A stretch of 64,000 bases of DNA from an uncultured Gemmataceae bacterium (GCA_963701675.1 OY969623.1:6450599-6514598); one strand, 5' to 3'; positions 2,691 through 47,767 are shown, counted from the stretch's first letter. Notes: generated from the letters alone by a model not told the origin. Translations and numbers: made by a program.

Positions 2691-5600
2691 ATGAACGATC
2701 CGATCAGTATCGACGACGCCGAACTCCTCTCGGAGGACATCGCCGAGGAATACCTGGAACACCTTCACGCCGGCAATGCGCCGGACCGCGCTCGCTGGCT
2801 CGATGCGCACCCTGACATAGCAGAAGTCCTCAACCGCCACTTGTCGGTTATCGAACGCATCCACCGCACGGCACAAGAGTCGAATGGCACCTCAACAGCG
2901 CTCGGCGCGGGTCTCCCGACCCCGCCGCCCGACCACATTGGCCGCTACGCAATTCTCGAAGTCCTCGGCCGTGGCGCATGCGGCACCGTGTATCATGCAT
3001 ACGATCCAAAATTCGATCGCGATGTCGCCCTTAAGGTCCTCCGCCCTGACCTGGCCGCCGATCCGCAATACGGTTCGCGCTTCCGCCGTGAAGCCCGCAT
3101 CGCCGCCCAACTGCGACACCCTCATATCGTCCCGGTTCACGCATCCGGCGAAGAAGATGGCCGAGTTTATCTGGACATGGCCTTCATCCCTGGCGAATCA
3201 CTCGAAGAGCGGCTAGCCGCCGGTCCTCTCTCGTTCGCCGACGCCGCCGACCTTGTCGAAAAACTCGCCGACGCCCTGCATTACGCCCATTCGCAAGGGA
3301 TCATCCATCGGGATGTGAAGCCAAGCAACATTCTGTTGGAGGGGTCAGGGGCCAGGGGCCAGGGGTCAGGAGTCAGAAGTCAGGATCAGGGATCAGAGTC
3401 TTCACTGACCCCTGACCCCTGGCCCCTGACCCCTGTTCTCACCGACTTCGGCCTCGCCCGCCGCGCCGCTGGGGAAGCGTCGTTGACCGAGCACGGCCAG
3501 GTCATCGGCACCCTGGCCTACATGCCGCCGGAACAAGCCCAGGGCGGCGGTCACCAGGCCGACGCCCGCAGCGATGTCTACAGCCTCGGCGCCGTGCTGT
3601 ATCGCTTGCTCAGCGGCCGTGTGCCGTTTCCGGATGACGGGTCATTCGTTTCACAGATTCACCGCATCGTGCACCACGAACCACCGACACCACGCACGGT
3701 GAACCGCGCAGTGCCGCGCGACCTGGAGACAATCTGTTTGAAAGCGATGGCCAAGGATCCGGCCGACCGCTTCACGACGGCGGCGGCGATGGCGGATGAG
3801 CTGCGGCGGTGGCGGAAGGATGAATCGCTGACAATACGGCCGCCGACGTGGTGGGAGAAAGGGCGGCGCTGGGCGCGGCGGAACAGGGCGGTAGCGAATG
3901 TTACGTTCGCTGCGGCAGTGCTGGTCGTGGCTGTCGGATTCCTGGCCCTGCTCGCCTGGCGCAACGCTGTGCTCGAAACCCGCACAAACGCCGAGGCCCA
4001 ATACATCAGGCTACTTTACCAGGCTAGACAACGCATTCTCACACCGATTGTCGGTCGCCGTGTGGAAGGACAACGCCTTCTAGAATCGGTGAAAGTACAC
4101 GGTGCGAGGATGCAAGATGCTGCAAGACGCCATCATCTCGACCTAGTGGCGCGATCGCTCTACGCAATGTCGTTAGGGGTACCGGACTTCGTTGCGAAGG
4201 AGGCCGACACTGTTAAGCTTCCAGAGGTGTTCTGGAAAATGTGGCCAATCGCGCTACATCCCGACGGGAAGGTGATGGTCATCGGCACATACAACGGGCC
4301 GGTGCGTTGGGATCGTGGTGGTTCGCCAAACTTGCCCCCCGATTTGGATCCGAATCTACATCGCCCGCGAATTGCGTTCAGTCCTGAAGGTAACTATCTC
4401 GCTTTCGCGCCGGAGGCAGGTGGCCTGATCCTCTACCCAGGCGACGTAGACACGACCCCAATCGCCAAATGGGCTTCGACAAAGAATGGTACGGTACAGA
4501 CCATCGGCTTTCATCCTGACGGACGTGCCGTGTCGCTGCTTTGCAGCGATGGGACGATCCAATGGCTTTCGGTACCGAATCTAAACGAGGCGTCTGTGTG
4601 GCCCAGCGATTCGACACTTGGGGAGGTGACGGTAGCCGCATTCTCACCCGACGCCTCGCAAATTGCGGTCGGGGACGCAAGCGGCAACGTACGGGTACGA
4701 TTCAGAGACGGCAAACCCATGAAGGTTCACTCTGCCAGCGATGACGCAACGCAGGTGGAGTCATTGGCTTGGTCGCCAGACGCCAAACTTCTTGCCGTCG
4801 GCAGGCGCGACGGCACTGTGGAACTCTGTGAAGCCGACAACGGAAGAATCCGCTGGCGAGGATCCATTTCCGCTACGGGTGTTAGCAATCTGGTCTTTGA
4901 TCCCTTGGGCCGTTGGCTTCTGGGCGGCTGGAGGCATTCCACGCTAAGAACGTGGGACGTGGCGAGCGGCCGCCAGGTCCTGACACTGGATTATTCCACT
5001 CCAATGGGATTCTCGCGTGACGGTAGGACGTTGGCTGTGGGCAATCAAATGAATGCGGCATTCGTGGAAATGGTCCCGCCCGCAACCGTGTGCCCTCTTT
5101 CCGGCCATCGGCGCGCTGTCGAGCATTTGGCTTGGAGCCGAAATGAGCGATTCCTGGTTTCGCTGGATTCCTCATACGAAATTCGTGTTTGGGACCTGGA
5201 GCGTGGCACTTCAATCATGGCCGTTCCGGCGCCACGTAGCGATTCTCAGTTTTTTCCAATGAACGCCCGGGTTGGAATCACTGATGACGGTGCTGTGGTT
5301 GCGTACGCAAGCGCCGGAACCAACGATTCTCACGCCTACATGTACGATGTGGCATCAGGGCACGTGCTCGGCAGCTGGCTGTTGCCAGGCGGTTTTGAAT
5401 CGATGGCGTTCAATGGAAAGGCGTTCGTGCTCGTGCGCGAGGAGTGTGCTTCAGCCGACGCGCCGCGGCAGAGCATCGTCTACGAATGGGCGATAGGACA
5501 TGAACCTCAAAAGCTGCATGCGTTGCGCGAAAGTGAAGCCGGCGACCAGCTAGGGTATTTCGCTAGTGAATTGACTCCGGACGCTCGCTATTTCCGATGG

Positions 5601-6092
5601 TGGGGCCCACGTAAACCGGACGAAAAACTGCGGCTGGAGGTGTACGATGTGGCTGCGAGACGCTGTATTAGGCGCTTTGGCCGGGCCGACTTGCGGGCTC
5701 CCGATGGTGGGCTTGGAGGCCATCTTTCCCCCGACGGTCGACGCTTACTTGTGGCACTTGGCGGAGGAGCCATGACGGCAATCGACCTGATTGATGGCAG
5801 CGAGTCTTATCCGGTGACAGGTTTGGAGTTCTCAGAAAACATGGAACGAACGGCACATTTCGCTGCGCCGAACGAATGGTGCAACTACGACCGTATCCGC
5901 GTATCGTCGCTCGACTCGTCAGGATCGCCTTTGGAACTGTTCAACCTCGATCTCTCAAACATCACCGGGCCGAATGTATGTTATCTCAGCCCCAGCGGCC
6001 GCTATCTTGCGTGGCGCGATGGGACCGGCGGCATCACCATCGCTGATCTACCAGCGCTGGAAACGGCAGTTGGCGGATTCCTAGCCGATTAA
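2691..6092 (+). CDS. Ser/Thr protein kinase (Hanks type) with transmembrane segment and C-terminal WD40/beta-propeller repeats; carries a 31-codon insertion between subdomains VIb and VII
   Basis: GRGACGTVY…ALKVL, HRDVKPSNILL, DFGLAR, YMPPE, DVYSLG; WD-like repeats (LAWSPD…, VWDL…, TWDV…) in the C-terminal half; it sits directly downstream of the ECF sigma gene. Confidence 0.85.
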   Translation: MNDPISIDDAELLSEDIAEEYLEHLHAGNAPDRARWLDAHPDIAEVLNRHLSVIERIHRTAQESNGTSTALGAGLPTPPPDHIGRYAILEVLGRGACGTVYHAYDPKFDRDVALKVLRPDLAADPQYGSRFRREARIAAQLRHPHIVPVHASGEEDGRVYLDMAFIPGESLEERLAAGPLSFADAADLVEKLADALHYAHSQGIIHRDVKPSNILLEGSGARGQGSGVRSQDQGSESSLTPDPWPLTPVLTDFGLARRAAGEASLTEHGQVIGTLAYMPPEQAQGGGHQADARSDVYSLGAVLYRLLSGRVPFPDDGSFVSQIHRIVHHEPPTPRTVNRAVPRDLETICLKAMAKDPADRFTTAAAMADELRRWRKDESLTIRPPTWWEKGRRWARRNRAVANVTFAAAVLVVAVGFLALLAWRNAVLETRTNAEAQYIRLLYQARQRILTPIVGRRVEGQRLLESVKVHGARMQDAARRHHLDLVARSLYAMSLGVPDFVAKEADTVKLPEVFWKMWPIALHPDGKVMVIGTYNGPVRWDRGGSPNLPPDLDPNLHRPRIAFSPEGNYLAFAPEAGGLILYPGDVDTTPIAKWASTKNGTVQTIGFHPDGRAVSLLCSDGTIQWLSVPNLNEASVWPSDSTLGEVTVAAFSPDASQIAVGDASGNVRVRFRDGKPMKVHSASDDATQVESLAWSPDAKLLAVGRRDGTVELCEADNGRIRWRGSISATGVSNLVFDPLGRWLLGGWRHSTLRTWDVASGRQVLTLDYSTPMGFSRDGRTLAVGNQMNAAFVEMVPPATVCPLSGHRRAVEHLAWSRNERFLVSLDSSYEIRVWDLERGTSIMAVPAPRSDSQFFPMNARVGITDDGAVVAYASAGTNDSHAYMYDVASGHVLGSWLLPGGFESMAFNGKAFVLVREECASADAPRQSIVYEWAIGHEPQKLHALRESEAGDQLGYFASELTPDARYFRWWGPRKPDEKLRLEVYDVAARRCIRRFGRADLRAPDGGLGGHLSPDGRRLLVALGGGAMTAIDLIDGSESYPVTGLEFSENMERTAHFAAPNEWCNYDRIRVSSLDSSGSPLELFNLDLSNITGPNVCYLSPSGRYLAWRDGTGGITIADLPALETAVGGFLAD
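3341..3435. repeat. heptamer-repeat palindrome (GGGGYCA)n…(TGRCCCC)n embedded in frame in the kinase CDS
   Basis: AGGGGTCAGGGGCCAGGGGCCAGGGGTCAGG…degenerate copies…CTGACCCCTGACCCCTGGCCCCTGACCCCTG; the arms are reverse complements. Confidence 0.8.
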
Positions 6093-8943: not shown

Positions 8944-10362
8944 GTGTTGCGGTGCTGGGAAGCCGTCCGTACGGTGGGGTACGAAAGTATGATGGGCCGG
9001 GTCTTTCTCGGGCGATATCAAACCGTCCGCCTGTTGGGCGAAGGCGGAATGGGGCGAGTGTACTTGGCACGGCAACTCGACCTGGGTCGGCAGGTCGTCG
9101 TCAAGGTCATGCACGAGCACATTGCCTCCGAGCCGAAGTTTCAGGAGCGTTTTCAACGCGAGACGCTCCTGATGGCCCGTTTTCAACATCCGTATGTCGT
9201 CACGCTGTTCGACGCGTCGCTCAACGATCCGCAAGGACCGTGCATCATCATGGAGTATATCCGCGGCGTCACGCTTGATGCACTCCGCAAAAGCAATCGT
9301 GAAAAGCTGGGCCCCGGTCGCGTCGCACGGCTGCTCGGACAACTGTGCGAAGCCTTGCAAGCCGCCCATGGGCAGGGCATTATCCATCGCGATCTGAAGC
9401 CGTCGAACCTGATGGTGGTCGATTCGGACTCGCCGTACGAAAAGATTAAAATCATGGACTTCGGCCTTGCCCGGCTGATTGGGGAGTCTGCGGTTCGACA
9501 CGGATCATCCACTTGCGGCGATTTCGCCGTAGGCACACCGGCGTACATTTGCCCGGAACAGGTGCGTGGCGAAGCGGTCGATCATCGATCCGATCTCTAC
9601 AGCGTCGGCGTGATCTTGTACGAGCTTCTGACCGGGCGCAAGCCGTTCGTCGGTGAATCGGCGATGGACATTTTGTTGGCGCATGCAACGGAAGAGCCGC
9701 CGCCTCTTACTGAGGTCGACGAGGATTTGGACCTGCCGCCAGGAGTTGAGAAACTCGTACTTGATTGTCTTGCCAAAGACCCGGCACACCGTCCGTCTAG
9801 TGCTCGTGAATTGGCGGAACGATTCGAGACGGCGTTGGCGCGAGAAGACTTGGATTCGGATGCCGTGATTCCCGAAGCTCTGCCGGTCGTGGAGCAGCCG
9901 GAAATCGATAACCCCTCGACGACCGACTCCGACGTATTGGTGTATCGCCTCGAAGCATGGATGCCGGAGTCCATCGCCCTCTACAAGCTCCGCGGCTACA
10001 TGAACGACGTAGGCGGGGACGTGGTCCAATCCGATCCGGGACGTGTGCGCGTATGCATCGGCGGGCCGGGCAGCGCTTATCAACTGCGTGGGCGTGGCTT
10101 ATCGTGGTTGGGATTGAGCCGAAACGCCGGCCGAATCGAAATGGACCTTCGCATGCAACACACCGATCTGGCACGCAGTAATCATCTGCTGATTACGGTG
10201 GTCATGCGCTCTCTCAACGGCAATTCCGCCTTCGACCCGCACTGGCGCACCGTGGCAACTCAAATCTACTGCGACCTGCGGGCGTATTTGATGGGAAAGT
10301 CGGGAGGGGGAGCGGGAGAAGAATTCAGAATTCAGAATTCAGAATTCAGAATCAAAAAATGA
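8944..10362 (+). CDS. Ser/Thr protein kinase with an uncharacterised C-terminal domain (start probably at the MMGRV Met near 8989)
   Basis: LGEGGMGRVYLA…VVVKVM, HRDLKPSNLMV, DFGLARL, GTPAYICPE, DLYSVG. Confidence 0.8.
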   Translation: MLRCWEAVRTVGYESMMGRVFLGRYQTVRLLGEGGMGRVYLARQLDLGRQVVVKVMHEHIASEPKFQERFQRETLLMARFQHPYVVTLFDASLNDPQGPCIIMEYIRGVTLDALRKSNREKLGPGRVARLLGQLCEALQAAHGQGIIHRDLKPSNLMVVDSDSPYEKIKIMDFGLARLIGESAVRHGSSTCGDFAVGTPAYICPEQVRGEAVDHRSDLYSVGVILYELLTGRKPFVGESAMDILLAHATEEPPPLTEVDEDLDLPPGVEKLVLDCLAKDPAHRPSSARELAERFETALAREDLDSDAVIPEALPVVEQPEIDNPSTTDSDVLVYRLEAWMPESIALYKLRGYMNDVGGDVVQSDPGRVRVCIGGPGSAYQLRGRGLSWLGLSRNAGRIEMDLRMQHTDLARSNHLLITVVMRSLNGNSAFDPHWRTVATQIYCDLRAYLMGKSGGGAGEEFRIQNSEFRIKK

Positions 10363-10437
10363 GCAGACTTGTTTCCGATAATGCTTAGGGCAGCCGCACG
10401 ATAGCATTACTCTGAATTCTGAATTCTGAATTCTCAC
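10320..10437. repeat. heptamer-repeat palindrome (GAATTCA)4…(CTGAATT)3 with a nested inner inverted repeat; a candidate bidirectional terminator between convergent genes
   Basis: gaattcagaattcagaattcagaattcagaat…ataatgct…agcattactctgaattctgaattctgaattct; the left arm encodes the C-terminal EEFRIQNSEFRIKK of the kinase. Confidence 0.8.
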
Positions 10438-11870
10438 TAACGAACTTTTGCCTGGAATCTGACCATTCCGCTTTTGCCGGGGGGGAGGTCGCCGCCGATT
10501 TGCCAGCGGAGGGCGAGGGAGCCGCCGTCGTTTTCCTGCGTTGTGAAAACGTTGTCGCGGTCGGAGAGGGCGGTCCCGGGGATGTACTCTAACCGCGGCG
10601 TCAAGCTGTCAGAGACGACGACATTGTTCATGGGCTGGCCGCCGGTGTTCGTGTACTTCAGATAGAACGTGGCGATGTCGCCGACGCGGGCTGCCTTCGG
10701 TTCGCACCACTTGCACAGAAGCAATGGGCCACATGGCGGTTCCTTGATACACACGCCTACGACTTCAACACCCTTCACGACACCGCGTGCCTCGGCCGTT
10801 TCAAGCATCTGTTCGACGCGAAGGAGTCCGGTCAAAGAGTCGATTTCGCTGGGCCGAATTCGCCCGACGGCGGACTCGGGTGCATAGATCTGGAGATTGA
10901 TCTTCGGATTGCGCAGTTCTTCTATTATCACTTGAGCATGCGTCGAGACGGTCGCCTCGGGGTTGACGACGATGCTGTACCCGGCCGGCGTTACTTCGGT
11001 TCGTAGCGCGATAAACCGTGGTGCGAAAATGCAGCAACGGTTTGACACGACAATCCGGCGGCAGCCTTTGCATTCGTACTCGGCGGCGGCGTCGCTAGGA
11101 TCCAGTCCGCGAAGATGTCCGAAATCGCCGAGGCCGACCGGAAGCTTGGTGTCGCCGCCGTCGCAGATGCACTCCTCGAATGCGCCACGTGGGCCGGCAC
11201 TTGGATCATAAATCTGGTGACAGGCCCAGGGCAGCGTAGGAGGTACGAGCGGCTGTGGAATCGCGGCATCTCCCGGGAATTGGATAGTTCCGGGAATTGC
11301 ACTGCGAGCCAATTCGTCGGCATCCGGCAACCGTTCACCAAAACGGAGAATAACCATCGTTCGGCCACAACGACGTGCTTCGTCAAAGATGCAGCGCGTC
11401 GGCAAGACGTCGAGTTCAATGGGTTGGTCACGCTGGGTCGCCACCGGGAAAGCCGTGCACGGGTCTTCCAGGTAGTACACCTTGGTAATGAACGCGCCGG
11501 AAAGGACGCGTTCAATGTCTTCTTTCGAGAATGCGATGGGGACGGGAAATTCCGCCGCATTGACGTACGCTGGATACGCCACGACGCCGCGGACTTCGAC
11601 CGTGGGAAACAACGACAAGCCAGGGCGTCCGGCTATGTCCGTCAGTTGTACGCGATAGATGTATCCTGGGCGCAAGCCGACGGTGACCGGCATGTCAAAC
11701 GCTTGGGCAACCGGATCGCCGTGGTAGAAGAGTGCTCTGGCCTGCGCGGGGCCGGTGAATTTGACATAGAGCAATTGAGTGCCTACACCGGTCCGCACGG
11801 GCCCGGTGGCAATCGTCGCCGCCACGGGGACCGAGAGCACGAACGCAATGGCTAGTAGGGTTTTCTTCAT
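10437..11870 (-). CDS. secreted protein with an N-terminal beta-rich domain shared with the downstream paralogue and a C-terminal DUF11/'conserved repeat domain'-like segment
   Basis: Signal peptide MKKTLLAIAFVLSVPVAAT; C-terminal 'VGDIATFYLKYTNTGGQPMNNVVVSDSLTPRLEYIPGT' is typical of DUF11/CARDB repeats. Confidence 0.55.
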   Translation of the reverse strand: MKKTLLAIAFVLSVPVAATIATGPVRTGVGTQLLYVKFTGPAQARALFYHGDPVAQAFDMPVTVGLRPGYIYRVQLTDIAGRPGLSLFPTVEVRGVVAYPAYVNAAEFPVPIAFSKEDIERVLSGAFITKVYYLEDPCTAFPVATQRDQPIELDVLPTRCIFDEARRCGRTMVILRFGERLPDADELARSAIPGTIQFPGDAAIPQPLVPPTLPWACHQIYDPSAGPRGAFEECICDGGDTKLPVGLGDFGHLRGLDPSDAAAEYECKGCRRIVVSNRCCIFAPRFIALRTEVTPAGYSIVVNPEATVSTHAQVIIEELRNPKINLQIYAPESAVGRIRPSEIDSLTGLLRVEQMLETAEARGVVKGVEVVGVCIKEPPCGPLLLCKWCEPKAARVGDIATFYLKYTNTGGQPMNNVVVSDSLTPRLEYIPGTALSDRDNVFTTQENDGGSLALRWQIGGDLPPGKSGMVRFQAKVR

Positions 11871-38477: not shown

Positions 38478-39029
38478 ATGAAAACCTGGGCAGTTTTGGC
38501 AAGCGCGGTGTTGGCGAGCACGGCTTTCGGACAATCCCCGTCGCCGGAAACATTACCCGCCATGCCGCCGCCGGCCATGCCGTGTGAAGAATGTGCTCCG
38601 GCATGTTCACCCTGTTGGACATTCTCGATTCCGAGAAGGCCAATCCGGACCTGGCTGGCGTGCTGCGACAGCGTGCAAAAATGCCGCGAGTTCCTGTCGT
38701 ACAAATCGACAAGTTGCGGCAGTTGCTGCCCCACGCCGGACCCATCGATCCATCCGCCACTGTACACTTACTTCTGGCCGTTGCACTGCGCCGACGGCAA
38801 CCGCGGCGGGTGCGGCAGCCTAAACGGTATGTGGAACACCAACGTGCATATGACGGAAGAGGGCTTTGCGTCCGCCGGCGTCCCCGTCAGCACCACGCAA
38901 TACTCACACAACGGGCACGCGCCCAAGAACGAGCCCTGGTTCAGGTCGATGACGGCTCGGTTCCGAAGCGAGAAGGCGACGGCATCCAATTCCGGCATCG
39001 TTCCGGTGAGCGGACAAGCGCCTCGTTAA
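38478..39029 (+). CDS. small secreted Cys-rich protein
   Basis: Signal peptide MKTWAVLASAVLASTAFG; 14 or more Cys in CxxC/CC clusters. Confidence 0.4.
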   Translation: MKTWAVLASAVLASTAFGQSPSPETLPAMPPPAMPCEECAPACSPCWTFSIPRRPIRTWLACCDSVQKCREFLSYKSTSCGSCCPTPDPSIHPPLYTYFWPLHCADGNRGGCGSLNGMWNTNVHMTEEGFASAGVPVSTTQYSHNGHAPKNEPWFRSMTARFRSEKATASNSGIVPVSGQAPR

Positions 39030-40027
39030 TCGTGTCGGATTGCTAGATCCGACGGCTTGACGCCTTTCTTGAATCCGCCGAATTTGAACGGAGACGGCCG
39101 AAACTCACCGACGATATCCACCTTGGCTCGCGCCGGTATCTGGCTTTCCATCGCCAGAGCCCAGTAGCAAGCGTTGACCAGCAACCGTCTCAATCCTTCA
39201 CTTTCCAAGTCTTGTGACGCGCCAATGGTGGACGTGAACACGCGCGCTTTCTTCCCCGATGCGGTTTGAAAAGTCTTCGTCCAGGCGATAGGCATCATGG
39301 GATCGTTTTGCTTGCCGGCCGCGGGTTTATCCGTCGCTTGCATTCCCTCCACAACCTGCCCCAGGACCAGCGGTTGGCTAACCCCCGGCAGCGGCAGCCG
39401 GACACCGTAAACGTCGGTCGGTCCCCAGATGTCGCCGTCCTCGATGCCGCGAAGGATTGGGTGGGACTCCTGGCCTTTCACCCGCAAGCCACGGGTGCTT
39501 TGTTTGCCGTGTTGTCCGTGATGGCTGATCCATTTCTCGCCGAGCACCTGCCGACCGAAACCACCTTCCCATTCGTTGCTGTTGTCGGAGTAGCGTGCAT
39601 ATTTCTTGTCGGGCTTGATGTTGAACGCATGGGTGGATGTTCGAATGCCAATGATCGGCTTGCCCGACTCCACGTAGTCGACGATGTGTTTCATTTGCTC
39701 GTCCGGCAGATCGCGGTAACGAGTGAAGATAATCATGAGGTCGGCAGACTTGAGTACGTCCAGCCCGGGAATGTTGTCGTTGATGTTCGGATTGATTGTG
39801 CCGTCCTTCGGGTCGATCGCGAACAAGACGGTGCACTTGAAGCCGTGATGTTTGGCGAGAATCTTCGCCAACTGCGGAAGCGCCTCTTCCGATCGGTATT
39901 CCTCGTCGCCGCTGATGAGGACGATGTGTTTACCCTTTCCAGGTCCCTCGCTACCGTCAACGACAAGCCACGGGTCGGCGGCGAGGAAAGACAAAAGGAT
40001 GAAGGATGAAGGATGAAGGATGAACAT
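39026..40027 (-). CDS. ThuA-like (class I glutamine amidotransferase-like) secreted protein; the signal peptide is encoded by a (GGATGAA)4 tandem heptamer
   Basis: 'HIVLISGDEEYRSEEALPQLAKIL…MIIFTR' is the ThuA core; ATG at 40027 with a GGAG RBS 8 nt upstream. Confidence 0.6.
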   Translation of the reverse strand: MFILHPSSFILLSFLAADPWLVVDGSEGPGKGKHIVLISGDEEYRSEEALPQLAKILAKHHGFKCTVLFAIDPKDGTINPNINDNIPGLDVLKSADLMIIFTRYRDLPDEQMKHIVDYVESGKPIIGIRTSTHAFNIKPDKKYARYSDNSNEWEGGFGRQVLGEKWISHHGQHGKQSTRGLRVKGQESHPILRGIEDGDIWGPTDVYGVRLPLPGVSQPLVLGQVVEGMQATDKPAAGKQNDPMMPIAWTKTFQTASGKKARVFTSTIGASQDLESEGLRRLLVNACYWALAMESQIPARAKVDIVGEFRPSPFKFGGFKKGVKPSDLAIRHD

Positions 40028-40088
40028 CAGTCGTCTCCTTTTCACGACCCGAGGGCCGTTCCGTGGCATTGTATGACGAGGCGCTGTT

Positions 40089-40499
40089 TTAGTTTGCAAG
40101 GGTGCGCGGTGTCCACGGCCAACGAGGCGGCACCAGCACAAACGTGACGAGGACGACTAAGGCAAAGGAGATATGTATGGCATTGAGTGCCTGCGTCGAG
40201 AACTCCACAAAGAGGACTTCATTCAGAAAACGTCCGATGAACGTAGCTTCGGAAACGGACTGGCCGGCGAGGCCGCGGAGGTCGTTTTCCCAGACCGTCA
40301 ACGGGCAATGGACGCCCAAAACGGCTTGCAGTCCGACGCTGGTCATGGCGATAACGTGAGCCAACCGAAACCAGAAGTTTCGGATCCAGGCCCAGCCGCG
40401 AATGGCGCCAACGATGATGACGATTTGCCCGATGCTAATGAACACCACCAAGGCGAAGTGTGCCGCGACCAACGCGTCTGCAAGGTAGCCGAACCACAT
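40089..40499 (-). CDS. DUF2784-like membrane protein
   Basis: MWFGYLADALVAAHFALVVFI…CPLT.WEN, four TM helices. Confidence 0.45.
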   Translation of the reverse strand: MWFGYLADALVAAHFALVVFISIGQIVIIVGAIRGWAWIRNFWFRLAHVIAMTSVGLQAVLGVHCPLTVWENDLRGLAGQSVSEATFIGRFLNEVLFVEFSTQALNAIHISFALVVLVTFVLVPPRWPWTPRTLAN

Positions 40500-40663
40500 G
40501 TTTGAACAACGTCCTCCCCGGCGCAATCCTCTGGAATGATCCATTCGTTGCGACGTTATTCCCGTTGCCGAACGAACCCGTAGCCGGAAAACGGGCTCCT
40601 TCTAGGAAGAGTGGTAGGATAAAGGGTCGCCAAATCCAATGATCCAACAGGACTCCGTTCGCC

Positions 40664-42232
40664 ATGACCGACGTATCGCGTTATTACTTGACCACGGCCA
40701 TCGACTATCCGAACAGCCGGCCCCACATTGGCACCGCATTCGAGAAACTCGGCGCCGATGTGCAGGCACGCTATCGCCGCATGGAAGGCTATACGGTCCA
40801 TTTCCTCATGGGGAACGACGAGAACACGATCAAGATCGCCCGGCGTGCCGCGGAGTTGAAACTCGACCCGAAGGCGTATTGCGACGACATGGCCCGGCAG
40901 TTCAAGGACGTGTGGCGGGCGCTGGAAATCAGTTACGACGATTTCATTCAAACGAGCGAGCCTCGCCATCACGCCGGATGCCAGAAGTTCATTCAAAAGG
41001 TTTACGACAACGGTCATATCTACAAGGGGACATACGAGGGGTACTACTGCGAGGGGTGTGAGGCATTTAAAACCGAGAAGGAGCTTGTGGACGGCAAGTG
41101 CCCGAATCATCAGATCCCGGTCGTGAAGCGCTCGGAGCCGTGCTACTACTTCGCGTTATCGAAGTTTCAGGACCGATTGTTGGAGTGGTACGAGCAGCAT
41201 CCCGATTTCATTCAGCCGGAGAGCCGGCGGAATGAAATCCTGAGCCTGGTGGAGAGCGGACTGCAAGATGTCAATGTAACACGGACCGGTCAGGCGTGGG
41301 GCATCCCCGTGCCGTTCGACCCGGCATATACCATCTACGTCTGGTTTGATGCCGTGTTGAACTACATTACTGGGATTGGCTACGGCACCGATGAAGAACA
41401 GTTCCGTCGCTGGTGGCCGGCCGACATTCATTTCATCGGTAAGGACATCACGCGCTTTCATTGTGCCCTCTGGCCGGCCATGTTGATGGCGGCGGATGTC
41501 GAGCCGCCGCGCTCCGTCTTCGGCCATGGCTTCGTCTACGTGAAGAAGGACGACGGCGGCGCGCTGGAAAAAATCAGTAAATCGCTCGGCAACGTCGTCG
41601 AGCCGATGGAGATCATCGAAAAGTTCAGTGCGGAAGCGTTCCGTTATTACTTCTTGCGCGAGTGTCCGTTCCCCGGCGATGGGGAGTTCAGTTGGCAACG
41701 GTTCACGGACGTGTACAACGCCGACCTGGCAAACAACCTCGGCAATCTCTATAGCCGGGTGATTACGCTCGTGACGAAAAACTTTTCCGGCCACTTGGCC
41801 GACACCGCGGGTTTAGAGCCGGGAGTCATTTACACGGAGATCGATACGCAGGCGACGGTGCAACAAGTACAGGCTCACATCGAGGCCTGTCAATATAACC
41901 AGGCGTTGGAAAAGATCTGGCGGCAAATACTCGATCCAGCCAATAAGTACGCCGACCGCACCGAGCCGTGGAAACTCGTGAAAACCGACCTCGCCGAAGG
42001 GCAGCGGGTGCTCTACGATCTGGTCGAACAACTCCGGATCGTGGCGATCTTGCTGAAGCCTTTCTTGCCGCGGTCGTCGGAGACTATCTACCGTAGCTTC
42101 AACTTTCCACAGCCCTGGGAAGAAGTTCGGCACGAGGACGTCTGGGTTCACCCACGCCAGGCGGATGACTTGCGTGTGCTGGCGGCGCTCGAAGGTGGTA
42201 AAGTGAAACCGTTGTTCCCGCGCATAGGGTGA
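40664..42232 (+). CDS. metG: methionyl-tRNA synthetase
   Basis: 'YYLTTAIDYPNSRPHIGTAFEKLGADV' (HIGH region variant), a CxxC…CxxC zinc knuckle, and 'KISKSLGN' (KMSKS). Confidence 0.9.
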   Translation: MTDVSRYYLTTAIDYPNSRPHIGTAFEKLGADVQARYRRMEGYTVHFLMGNDENTIKIARRAAELKLDPKAYCDDMARQFKDVWRALEISYDDFIQTSEPRHHAGCQKFIQKVYDNGHIYKGTYEGYYCEGCEAFKTEKELVDGKCPNHQIPVVKRSEPCYYFALSKFQDRLLEWYEQHPDFIQPESRRNEILSLVESGLQDVNVTRTGQAWGIPVPFDPAYTIYVWFDAVLNYITGIGYGTDEEQFRRWWPADIHFIGKDITRFHCALWPAMLMAADVEPPRSVFGHGFVYVKKDDGGALEKISKSLGNVVEPMEIIEKFSAEAFRYYFLRECPFPGDGEFSWQRFTDVYNADLANNLGNLYSRVITLVTKNFSGHLADTAGLEPGVIYTEIDTQATVQQVQAHIEACQYNQALEKIWRQILDPANKYADRTEPWKLVKTDLAEGQRVLYDLVEQLRIVAILLKPFLPRSSETIYRSFNFPQPWEEVRHEDVWVHPRQADDLRVLAALEGGKVKPLFPRIG

Positions 42233-47637: not shown

Positions 47638-47767
47638 CAGTTGTCAGTTGTCAGAATTCGTAGTCTCGTAACTGCAATCCATAGCGGCTAGGCACCTGCA
47701 TCCAATATCATTGGAGAAGTGTCCCAGCAACTGACAACTGACAACTGGCAACTGACAACTGCTTGAA
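47637..47767. repeat. heptamer-repeat palindrome (CAGTTGT)n…(CAACTGR)5 filling the sugar-transferase/obg intergenic space
   Basis: gcagttgtcagttgtcag … cagcaactgacaactgacaactggcaactgacaactgc; the right arm ends 5 nt before the obg ATG. Confidence 0.8.

Follow-up and report, generated by a model that had tools for sequence, protein, structure and literature searches.

A perfect heptanucleotide microsatellite in the leader-coding end of a ThuA-like gene of an uncultured Gemmataceae bacterium, a candidate switch only

The 5' end of a ThuA-like gene of an uncultured Gemmataceae bacterium contains four perfect head-to-tail copies of the heptamer TTCATCC, which encode part of a putative signal peptide. 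With a probability of about 0.6, this array is an ordinary, incidental heptamer microsatellite that is tolerated in the leader and that has a latent on/off potential without being an evolved contingency switch. The stretch of DNA analysed, 64 kb long, is called the window, and n designates the number of heptamer units. The features discussed are collected in Table 1.

Table 1. Features of the window, with their coordinates, strand and the evidence or values attached to them
Feature	Position	Strand	Evidence or value
Perfect heptanucleotide microsatellite, (TTCATCC)x4 + TT on the coding strand	39995..40024	-	Tandem Repeats Finder (TRF), exact matches, translation
ThuA-family gene (type 1 glutamine amidotransferase-like), 333 aa, intact end to end	39026..40027	-	Pfam PF06283
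ATG of the public annotation, adjoins the 5' edge of the array	40025..40027	-	identical 333-aa P0001 on record
AAGGAG, 7 nt upstream of ATG 40027	40035..40040	-	sequence
Alternative in-frame ATG, would add the charged n-region MPRNGPRVVKRRRL	40067..40069	-	ORF list, simulation
Leader hydrophobic core FILLSFLAA, residues 9-17	39977..40003	-	Kyte-Doolittle scan
DUF2784 protein gene, upstream same-strand neighbour	40089..40544	-	Pfam PF10861, E = 5e-23
Methionyl-tRNA synthetase gene (MetG), divergent	40664-42232	+	neighbour of the DUF2784 gene
Inverted element, ~8 GGGGTCA-type units facing ~4 TGACCCC units	3340-3435		hairpin -76 kcal/mol, z = -7
Inverted element, (AGAATTC)4.7 ... 58 nt ... (GAATTCT)3.4, between convergent genes	10320-10434		z = -7.2
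Inverted element, (CAGTTGT)2.4 ... (ACAACTG)4.9	47638-47761		z = -5.3

On the + strand, Tandem Repeats Finder describes the array as a unit AAGGATG with a period of 7, 4.3 copies and 100% matches, and GGATGAA occurs exactly four times at 39997-40024. With at least three head-to-tail copies of high identity, the array belongs to the heptanucleotide class of repeats. On the - strand, the heptamers are laid out as ATG, TTCATCC TTCATCC TTCATCC TTCATCC TT, TTG TCT, or MFILHPSSFILLSFLAADPW..., and the same letters grouped in codons, ATG TTC ATC CTT CAT CCT TCA TCC TTC ATC CTT TTG TCT TTC, translate as MFILHPSSFILLSF...; the array codons provide residues 2-11 (FILHPSSFIL) of the annotated protein. 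The sequence-only reading of this DNA had reported a perfect (TTCATCC)4 tandem in the leader of a ThuA-like protein, and TRF, exact matching, translation and the PF06283 match all corroborate it; the interval it gave, 39985-40027, does include the array and also takes in the ATG and three non-repeat codons. The perfect run of period 7 is 30 nt long, against a maximum of 21 nt and a mean of 15 nt in 200 shuffles of the window. In the sense orientation, TTCATCC is open in all three frames, reading FILHPSS cyclically, whereas each antisense frame contains a TGA. The array relies on disfavoured codons (CTT, CCT and TCA, 12%, 9% and 9% of their respective codon families) and has a G+C content of 43%, versus 58.6% for the window. 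It is thus not codon-adapted, which fits a repeat unshaped by translation.

A search with a 14-mer of the array unit, allowing up to two mismatches, returned nothing else nearby, and within 200 nt on either side the best match to a GGATGAA periodicity is no better than in shuffled sequence. Only one arm is therefore present, as had been noted from the sequence: the array has no reverse-complementary array within ~100-200 nt and forms no long hairpin of the type seen in inverted elements. The predicted fold of the - strand RNA from 39960 to 40095 is weak (MFE -36.9 kcal/mol, z = -2.06). In this predicted fold, base pairs form between AAAAGGA and the UCCUUUU at the array's 3' end, and between the region around AUG 40069 and the D-P-W-L codons; the heptamer array itself lies in the loop. 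Rfam yielded only a sub-threshold chance match of the array region to a plant microRNA family. An antisense ORF of 44 aa, 40013-40147(+), which begins inside the repeat, was rejected, being unsupported and overlapping two sense genes.

The product of ORF 39026-40027 matches the Pfam ThuA family with 45.6 bits (cut-off 33.4; E = 1.3e-11), the sole family match. The identical protein on record, P0001, is encoded on a contig of 8,725,057 bp and is the single member of its 90% protein cluster. The protein has 8000 homologues at E <= 1e-20, and those bearing names come from Gemmataceae, Planctomycetota and Bryobacteraceae. ThuA is an enzyme family and not a surface, host- or phage-interaction determinant, the product class that is typical of phase-variation targets without defining them.

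Two in-frame ATGs lie upstream of the array, and the leader differs according to which is used. From ATG 40027 it is 16 residues long, MFILHPSSFILLSFLA before ADPW, and contains no K or R; from ATG 40069, which lies 20 nt past the stop of the DUF2784 gene, it is 30 residues long, with five K/R and the charged n-region MPRNGPRVVKRRRL. The AAGGAG motif is either a Shine-Dalgarno site for ATG 40027 or, if ATG 40069 is the start, a set of K-R-R codons; a Shine-Dalgarno-like motif precedes a minority of the long ORFs in the window. For the two nearest homologues, P0002 and P0003, the called genes start one codon downstream of the position equivalent to 40027, and the charged N-terminal extensions of more distant homologues align with the segment encoded from 40069. 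A promoter scan of 39800-40700 revealed no sigma-70-like promoter able to decide the start codon. The array is translated from either ATG.

In most of the 119 homologue N-termini compared, K/R near the start of the leader is followed by a hydrophobic stretch and then by a site of small residues just ahead of ADPW or a similar motif. Since the homologue leaders end before the conserved ADPW, the ThuA-like protein is probably exported, and its leader would have to be translated. The segment FILLSFLAA is the top-scoring 9-mer of the leader (2.7 on the Kyte-Doolittle scale) and is followed by ADPW, the conserved start of the mature protein. A hydrophobic core of at least seven residues is thus combined with a small-residue site (A/ADPW) at the position of the homologues' cleavage site, as in a predicted Sec-type signal peptide. 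A twin-arginine leader (KRRRLMF) was rejected: the motif is poor and the homologues look Sec-type.

It had been claimed that this signal peptide was built by repeat expansion, a claim that does not survive the dissection of the core. In FILLSFLAA the first three residues are encoded by the final heptamer and the others by non-repeated DNA; the last ~1.3 units are all that this core requires. The 21 nt of the other three units insert seven residues, FILHPSS or HPSSFIL, on the N-terminal side of the core, and a leader modelled with a single unit and ATG 40069, MPRNGPRVVKRRRLMFILLSFLAA before DPW, is textbook canonical. Because the core needs the last unit only and the one-unit leader is canonical, the signal peptide is modified, not built, by the repeat.

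The consequences of a change in copy number were followed by rebuilding the gene in silico with 0-8 heptamer units. The repeat lies within the ORF (codons 2-11) and its 7-nt unit is not divisible by 3, the geometry of a phase-variable tract. The reading frame is kept with n = 1, 4 and 7 only; the product ends after 18-46 aa for n = 2, 5 and 8, and after 88-116 aa for n = 0, 3 and 6. Depending on the start codon, n = 3 leads to 95 or 109 aa and n = 5 to 25 or 39 aa. Upstream of the array, the shifted variants contain no ATG, GTG, TTG or CTG in the frame of the mature enzyme that could act as a rescue start. As the shifted frames are truncated without rescue, gain or loss of one or two units yields a null allele, and one unit more or less suffices to abolish the full-length product. 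The expectation from the sequence, that copy-number changes shift the frame and that a 3- or 5-copy variant truncates the ORF, is borne out by the simulation, in which ±1 or ±2 units lead to products of 18-116 aa. Since 7 is not a multiple of 3, all values of n other than 1, 4 and 7 are null, which makes the tract a latent mutational on/off hotspot.

The comparison with homologues sheds light on the history of the leader. The closest one, P0002, is 79% identical over a gapless alignment of 329 residues that starts at residue 2 of the ThuA-like protein. Its leader LLVHPSLAITLACLAADPW (LLVHPSLAIT...) has the same length as the array-encoded leader and the tripeptide H-P-S at the same offset; among the 119 N-termini compared, H-P-S is found in these two proteins only. 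Residues i and i+7 of P0002 differ, which is incompatible with a perfect heptamer array in its DNA. P0003 (77% identity), from the same JGI sample as P0002 (3300056388), is encoded on a contig that shares with the window the synteny of the DUF2784 gene and the divergent methionyl-tRNA synthetase gene, with two extra small genes between DUF2784 and ThuA. Its leader, MVPYSLCLVFWSACSS before EPW, is again of the same length as that of the window protein, and unrelated in sequence. The three proteins are roughly equidistant pairwise. Their predicted leaders thus appear conserved in length and not in sequence. The sequence-only reading would have been refuted by an invariant copy number together with homologues sharing the same peptide encoded by non-repetitive DNA, and this is half the case: P0002 has a related leader of equal length that is not a perfect repeat, and that of P0003 is unrelated.

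Among the matches listed from the genome collection, relatives reach at most 73% identity, the 80 homologue loci are all devoid of a period-7 repeat in the 170 nt coding for the leader, and none shows synteny with the window. The pattern H-P-S-x2-I-x-L-x2-L-A-A-D-P-W matches the window and has no match in the metagenome collection. As the 30-nt tract is devoid of substitutions and the homologue leaders have diverged, the tract has not simply been inherited unchanged. One possibility is an old array that slippage would have kept homogenising in this lineage, the other a pyrimidine-rich proto-repeat that would recently have become perfect. To note, in three unrelated planctomycete-type loci, heptamer arrays of other units are located at, or within ~30 nt of, the 3' end of a ThuA homologue: GTGAGTG-type in L024 (3946-3977), GGGATTA-type in L045 (3936-3967) and GGTTGAG-type in L047 (4003-4031). 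L045 also harbors more long arrays, in inverted orientation, at 4739-4960.

Within the 64-kb window, tandem arrays are enriched at period 7 only: six were counted, whereas the other periods from 4 to 12 have 0-1 each, so that period 7 is over-represented at this scale. Besides the ThuA array, the heptamer arrays form three inverted pairs of unrelated units, AGGGGTC, AGAATTC and CAGTTGT. The first pair is in frame within the catalytic domain of a Ser/Thr kinase-WD40 protein (ORF 2691-6092), where it is inserted between HRDVKPSN and DFG and adds ~30 residues to the kinase. In the second, the first arm encodes the last residues (EEFRIQNSEFRIKK, then the stop) of the kinase 8944-10362, and the second arm ends 3 nt before the stop of a DUF11 protein gene (10437-11870). 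The third occupies the space that separates the stop of a sugar transferase gene (47637) from the start of a putative Obg-like GTPase ORF (47768), as judged by eye. All three fold as long hairpins (z from -5.3 to -7.2), against z = -2.06 for the ThuA array. The copy numbers of the two arms are unequal in each of them, which indicates independent slippage after pair formation. Two of the three pairs enter coding sequence in frame, in the interior of one kinase and at the C-terminus of another. Heptamer arrays tend to be mainly intergenic, a tendency of the class and not a requirement; the ThuA array departs from it, and other arrays of the window also enter ORFs.

The same heptamer was sought in metagenomes, with TTCATCCTTCATCCTT followed by D-P-W codons as the query. 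TTCATCC arrays of 2-13 units (median 4) were found on 18 unrelated contigs (L081-L098), none of which carries a ThuA orthologue. These arrays are mostly intergenic or part of 5' leaders; one coincides with the N-terminus of a long ORF. Most lie 10-40 nt upstream of start codons, as in front of what by eye resemble a DnaJ (L091) and a ClpP (L088) N-terminus. A GGATGAA arm is present within 200 nt upstream of nine of the 18, the other half being single-armed. In the paired arrays the order is always GGATGAA...TTCATCC, the sole downstream GGATGAA (L090) coming from a second element. The two arms differ in coding capacity: the GGATGAA arm has stops in all frames and provides an SD-like AAGGA and an ATG, whereas the TTCATCC arm is open in all frames. 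In L081 (4763-4935), both arms of one element are translated. Its GGATGAA arm ends the preceding Kdo-transferase-like gene (...LLRMKDE and stop), and its TTCATCC arm forms the leader-like N-terminus (MIHHSSFSFHLSTFILHPSSFILHYSSFILFFLALSLRA before EN; ...FILHPSSFILHYSSFILFFLALSLRA before EN) of a 710-aa ORF without Pfam match. L081 would be a second, independent case of a TTCATCC heptamer in a putative signal peptide.

Several other readings of the array have to be weighed. A true contingency locus, in which slipped-strand mispairing would switch the secreted ThuA-like enzyme on (n = 1, 4, 7) or off at a selected rate, is judged unlikely. It would account well for a unit that is not a multiple of 3 in a tract located in the leader-coding 5' end, for the truncation of every out-of-frame variant to 18-116 aa with no rescue start, and for a tract that is perfect despite the divergence of the homologue leader; the array has more copies than the published threshold for 6-9-nt units demands (PMC5953494), and the unequal arms of the inverted elements of the window show active slippage in this genome. 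However, the four copies are few compared to the 13-24 studied in the Haemophilus hmw heptamer switch (PMC8262952), and Neisseria opa alleles with 1-4 repeats have been treated as non-variable (PMC5953494). Moreover, the product belongs to an enzyme family and is not a surface antigen, adhesin or receptor, the array is the only such case in the 64-kb window, and the leader length is equal in the two nearest homologues. Slightly more doubtful still is the capture of one arm of an inverted GGATGAA...TTCATCC element, whose open TTCATCC arm would have been absorbed into the gene while the other arm was lost or decayed, AAGGAG being its last trace. The GGATGAA arm upstream of half of the metagenomic arrays (9/18), the L081 arms that encode the C-terminus of one gene (RMKDE and stop) and the N-terminus of the next, the three inverted elements of the window, and the pairing of the upstream AAAAGGA with UCCUUUU at the array end in the predicted fold are all compatible with such an origin. 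Against it, no GGATGAA periodicity is statistically detectable within 200 nt on either side, the local fold (z = -2.06) is weak compared to that of real inverted elements (-5.3 to -7.2), and half of the metagenomic arrays are single-armed too.

The two remaining alternatives concern the status of the array itself. That it is untranslated, the start being the TTG codon directly after the repeat and the array a pyrimidine-rich 5' leader modulating translation, is very improbable. The location of most metagenomic TTCATCC arrays, 10-40 nt upstream of a start codon (dnaJ-like L091, clpP-like L088), would be in line with it, but such a start leaves only SFLAA before the mature ADPW, without a hydrophobic core, at a place where nearly all of the 119 homologues have a hydrophobic leader; in addition, both in-frame ATGs are upstream of the array and the public annotation translates it. 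A chance repeat or an assembly artefact can practically be dismissed, given a perfect run of 30 nt versus a maximum of 21 nt in 200 shuffles, a tract far shorter than a sequencing read, and an ORF that is intact and in frame through the tract.

An incidental, tolerated microsatellite remains the preferred reading, and the following course of events is proposed. Heptamer repeats, which appear to be exceptionally frequent in this genome and its environmental relatives, would arise by replication slippage, and one such array would have landed at the 5' end of the coding sequence for a secreted ThuA-like enzyme. Its persistence would reflect tolerance: TTCATCC is free of stops in any sense frame and specifies a mostly hydrophobic heptapeptide, FILHPSS, and signal peptides accept almost any sequence of mostly hydrophobic character. 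Three of the four units would add a 7-residue insert N-terminal to the true core, of which the last unit would supply the first three residues. The on/off potential would then be a side effect of the landing site, with a switching rate probably too low to matter. Two observations count against this incidental origin. The perfection of the array, as compared with the diverged P0002 leader that retains H-P-S, suggests that the tract has been renewed or homogenised and is dynamic on an evolutionary timescale, and the ATG that abuts the array exactly could reflect selection on the arrangement. By the cut-off of at least three copies for 6-9-nt units (PMC5953494), the ThuA array is a candidate phase-variable repeat.

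Among longer repeat units, heptamers are reported to be the most frequent in most bacterial genomes, and their connection with polymerase slippage has been proposed (PMC4692102, PMC4679880). In Xanthomonas, four units is the commonest array size and some arrays form inverted pairs; in TAACTGA repeats, only one orientation is translatable and the other has stops in all frames (PMC4692102, PMC4679880). The ThuA array resembles the Xanthomonas GGGAATC, Nostoc GGGGAYT, Calothrix and Beggiatoaceae/cyanobacterial TAACTGA repeats by its 7-nt unit and its few-copy tandem arrangement, and shares with these bacterial heptanucleotide repeats the strong over-representation of period 7 alone, the occasional inverted pairs and the translatability of one orientation. 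It differs from the Xanthomonas, Nostoc, Calothrix and Beggiatoaceae heptamers in its unit, its phylum and its leader-coding rather than intergenic position.

Closer functional parallels are found in pathogens. The Neisseria opa CTCTT pentamer is likewise not a triplet; it is rich in pyrimidines and codes for the hydrophobic portion of a signal peptide, and a change in its copy number shifts the frame and turns the protein off (PMC3960869). Opa switches at ~1e-3 per cell per generation, with longer tracts, and is a surface adhesin of a host-restricted pathogen, whereas the ThuA tract has four copies and belongs to an enzyme gene of a free-living organism. The CT repeat of Helicobacter pylori oipA likewise provides a frame-dependent on/off control at the 5' end of a gene for an exported protein (PMC10564699). 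It differs by its dinucleotide unit, its outer-membrane virulence product and an on/off status documented across strains. The ATCTTTC repeats of Haemophilus influenzae hmw1A/hmw2A have a 7-nt unit and a slippage shown experimentally, but they are non-coding, lie between promoters, were studied at 13-24 copies and exert a graded transcriptional control (PMC8262952). The ThuA array is therefore filed as a heptamer repeat in a coding 5' end and as a candidate switch only, nearest structurally to the bacterial heptanucleotide repeats and functionally to opa/oipA.

The most far-reaching possibility is that the tract would function as a reversible frameshift switch, controlling a secreted enzyme of a free-living planctomycete, and, more broadly, that the stop-free TTCATCC arm of the widespread GGATGAA...TTCATCC elements would be a reusable source of hydrophobic leaders, able to create or remodel signal peptides, with two independent cases, the ThuA gene and the 710-aa ORF of L081; it is regarded as a long shot, about as doubtful as the capture of an arm. 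If the tract truly switches, repeat-driven phase variation would reach beyond host-adapted pathogens, to a bacterium living free in soil or water and to an exoenzyme of metabolism, and the three in-frame leader lengths (n = 1, 4, 7) would make the gene an easy experimental system. In practical terms, the annotation of the ThuA-like gene, both start codon and frame, may be fragile in related assemblies. If, as preferred here, the array is an incidental and tolerated microsatellite, it would illustrate how abundant heptamers enter coding sequence where one strand is stop-free and the protein is tolerant, as in signal peptides, kinase loops and C-termini.
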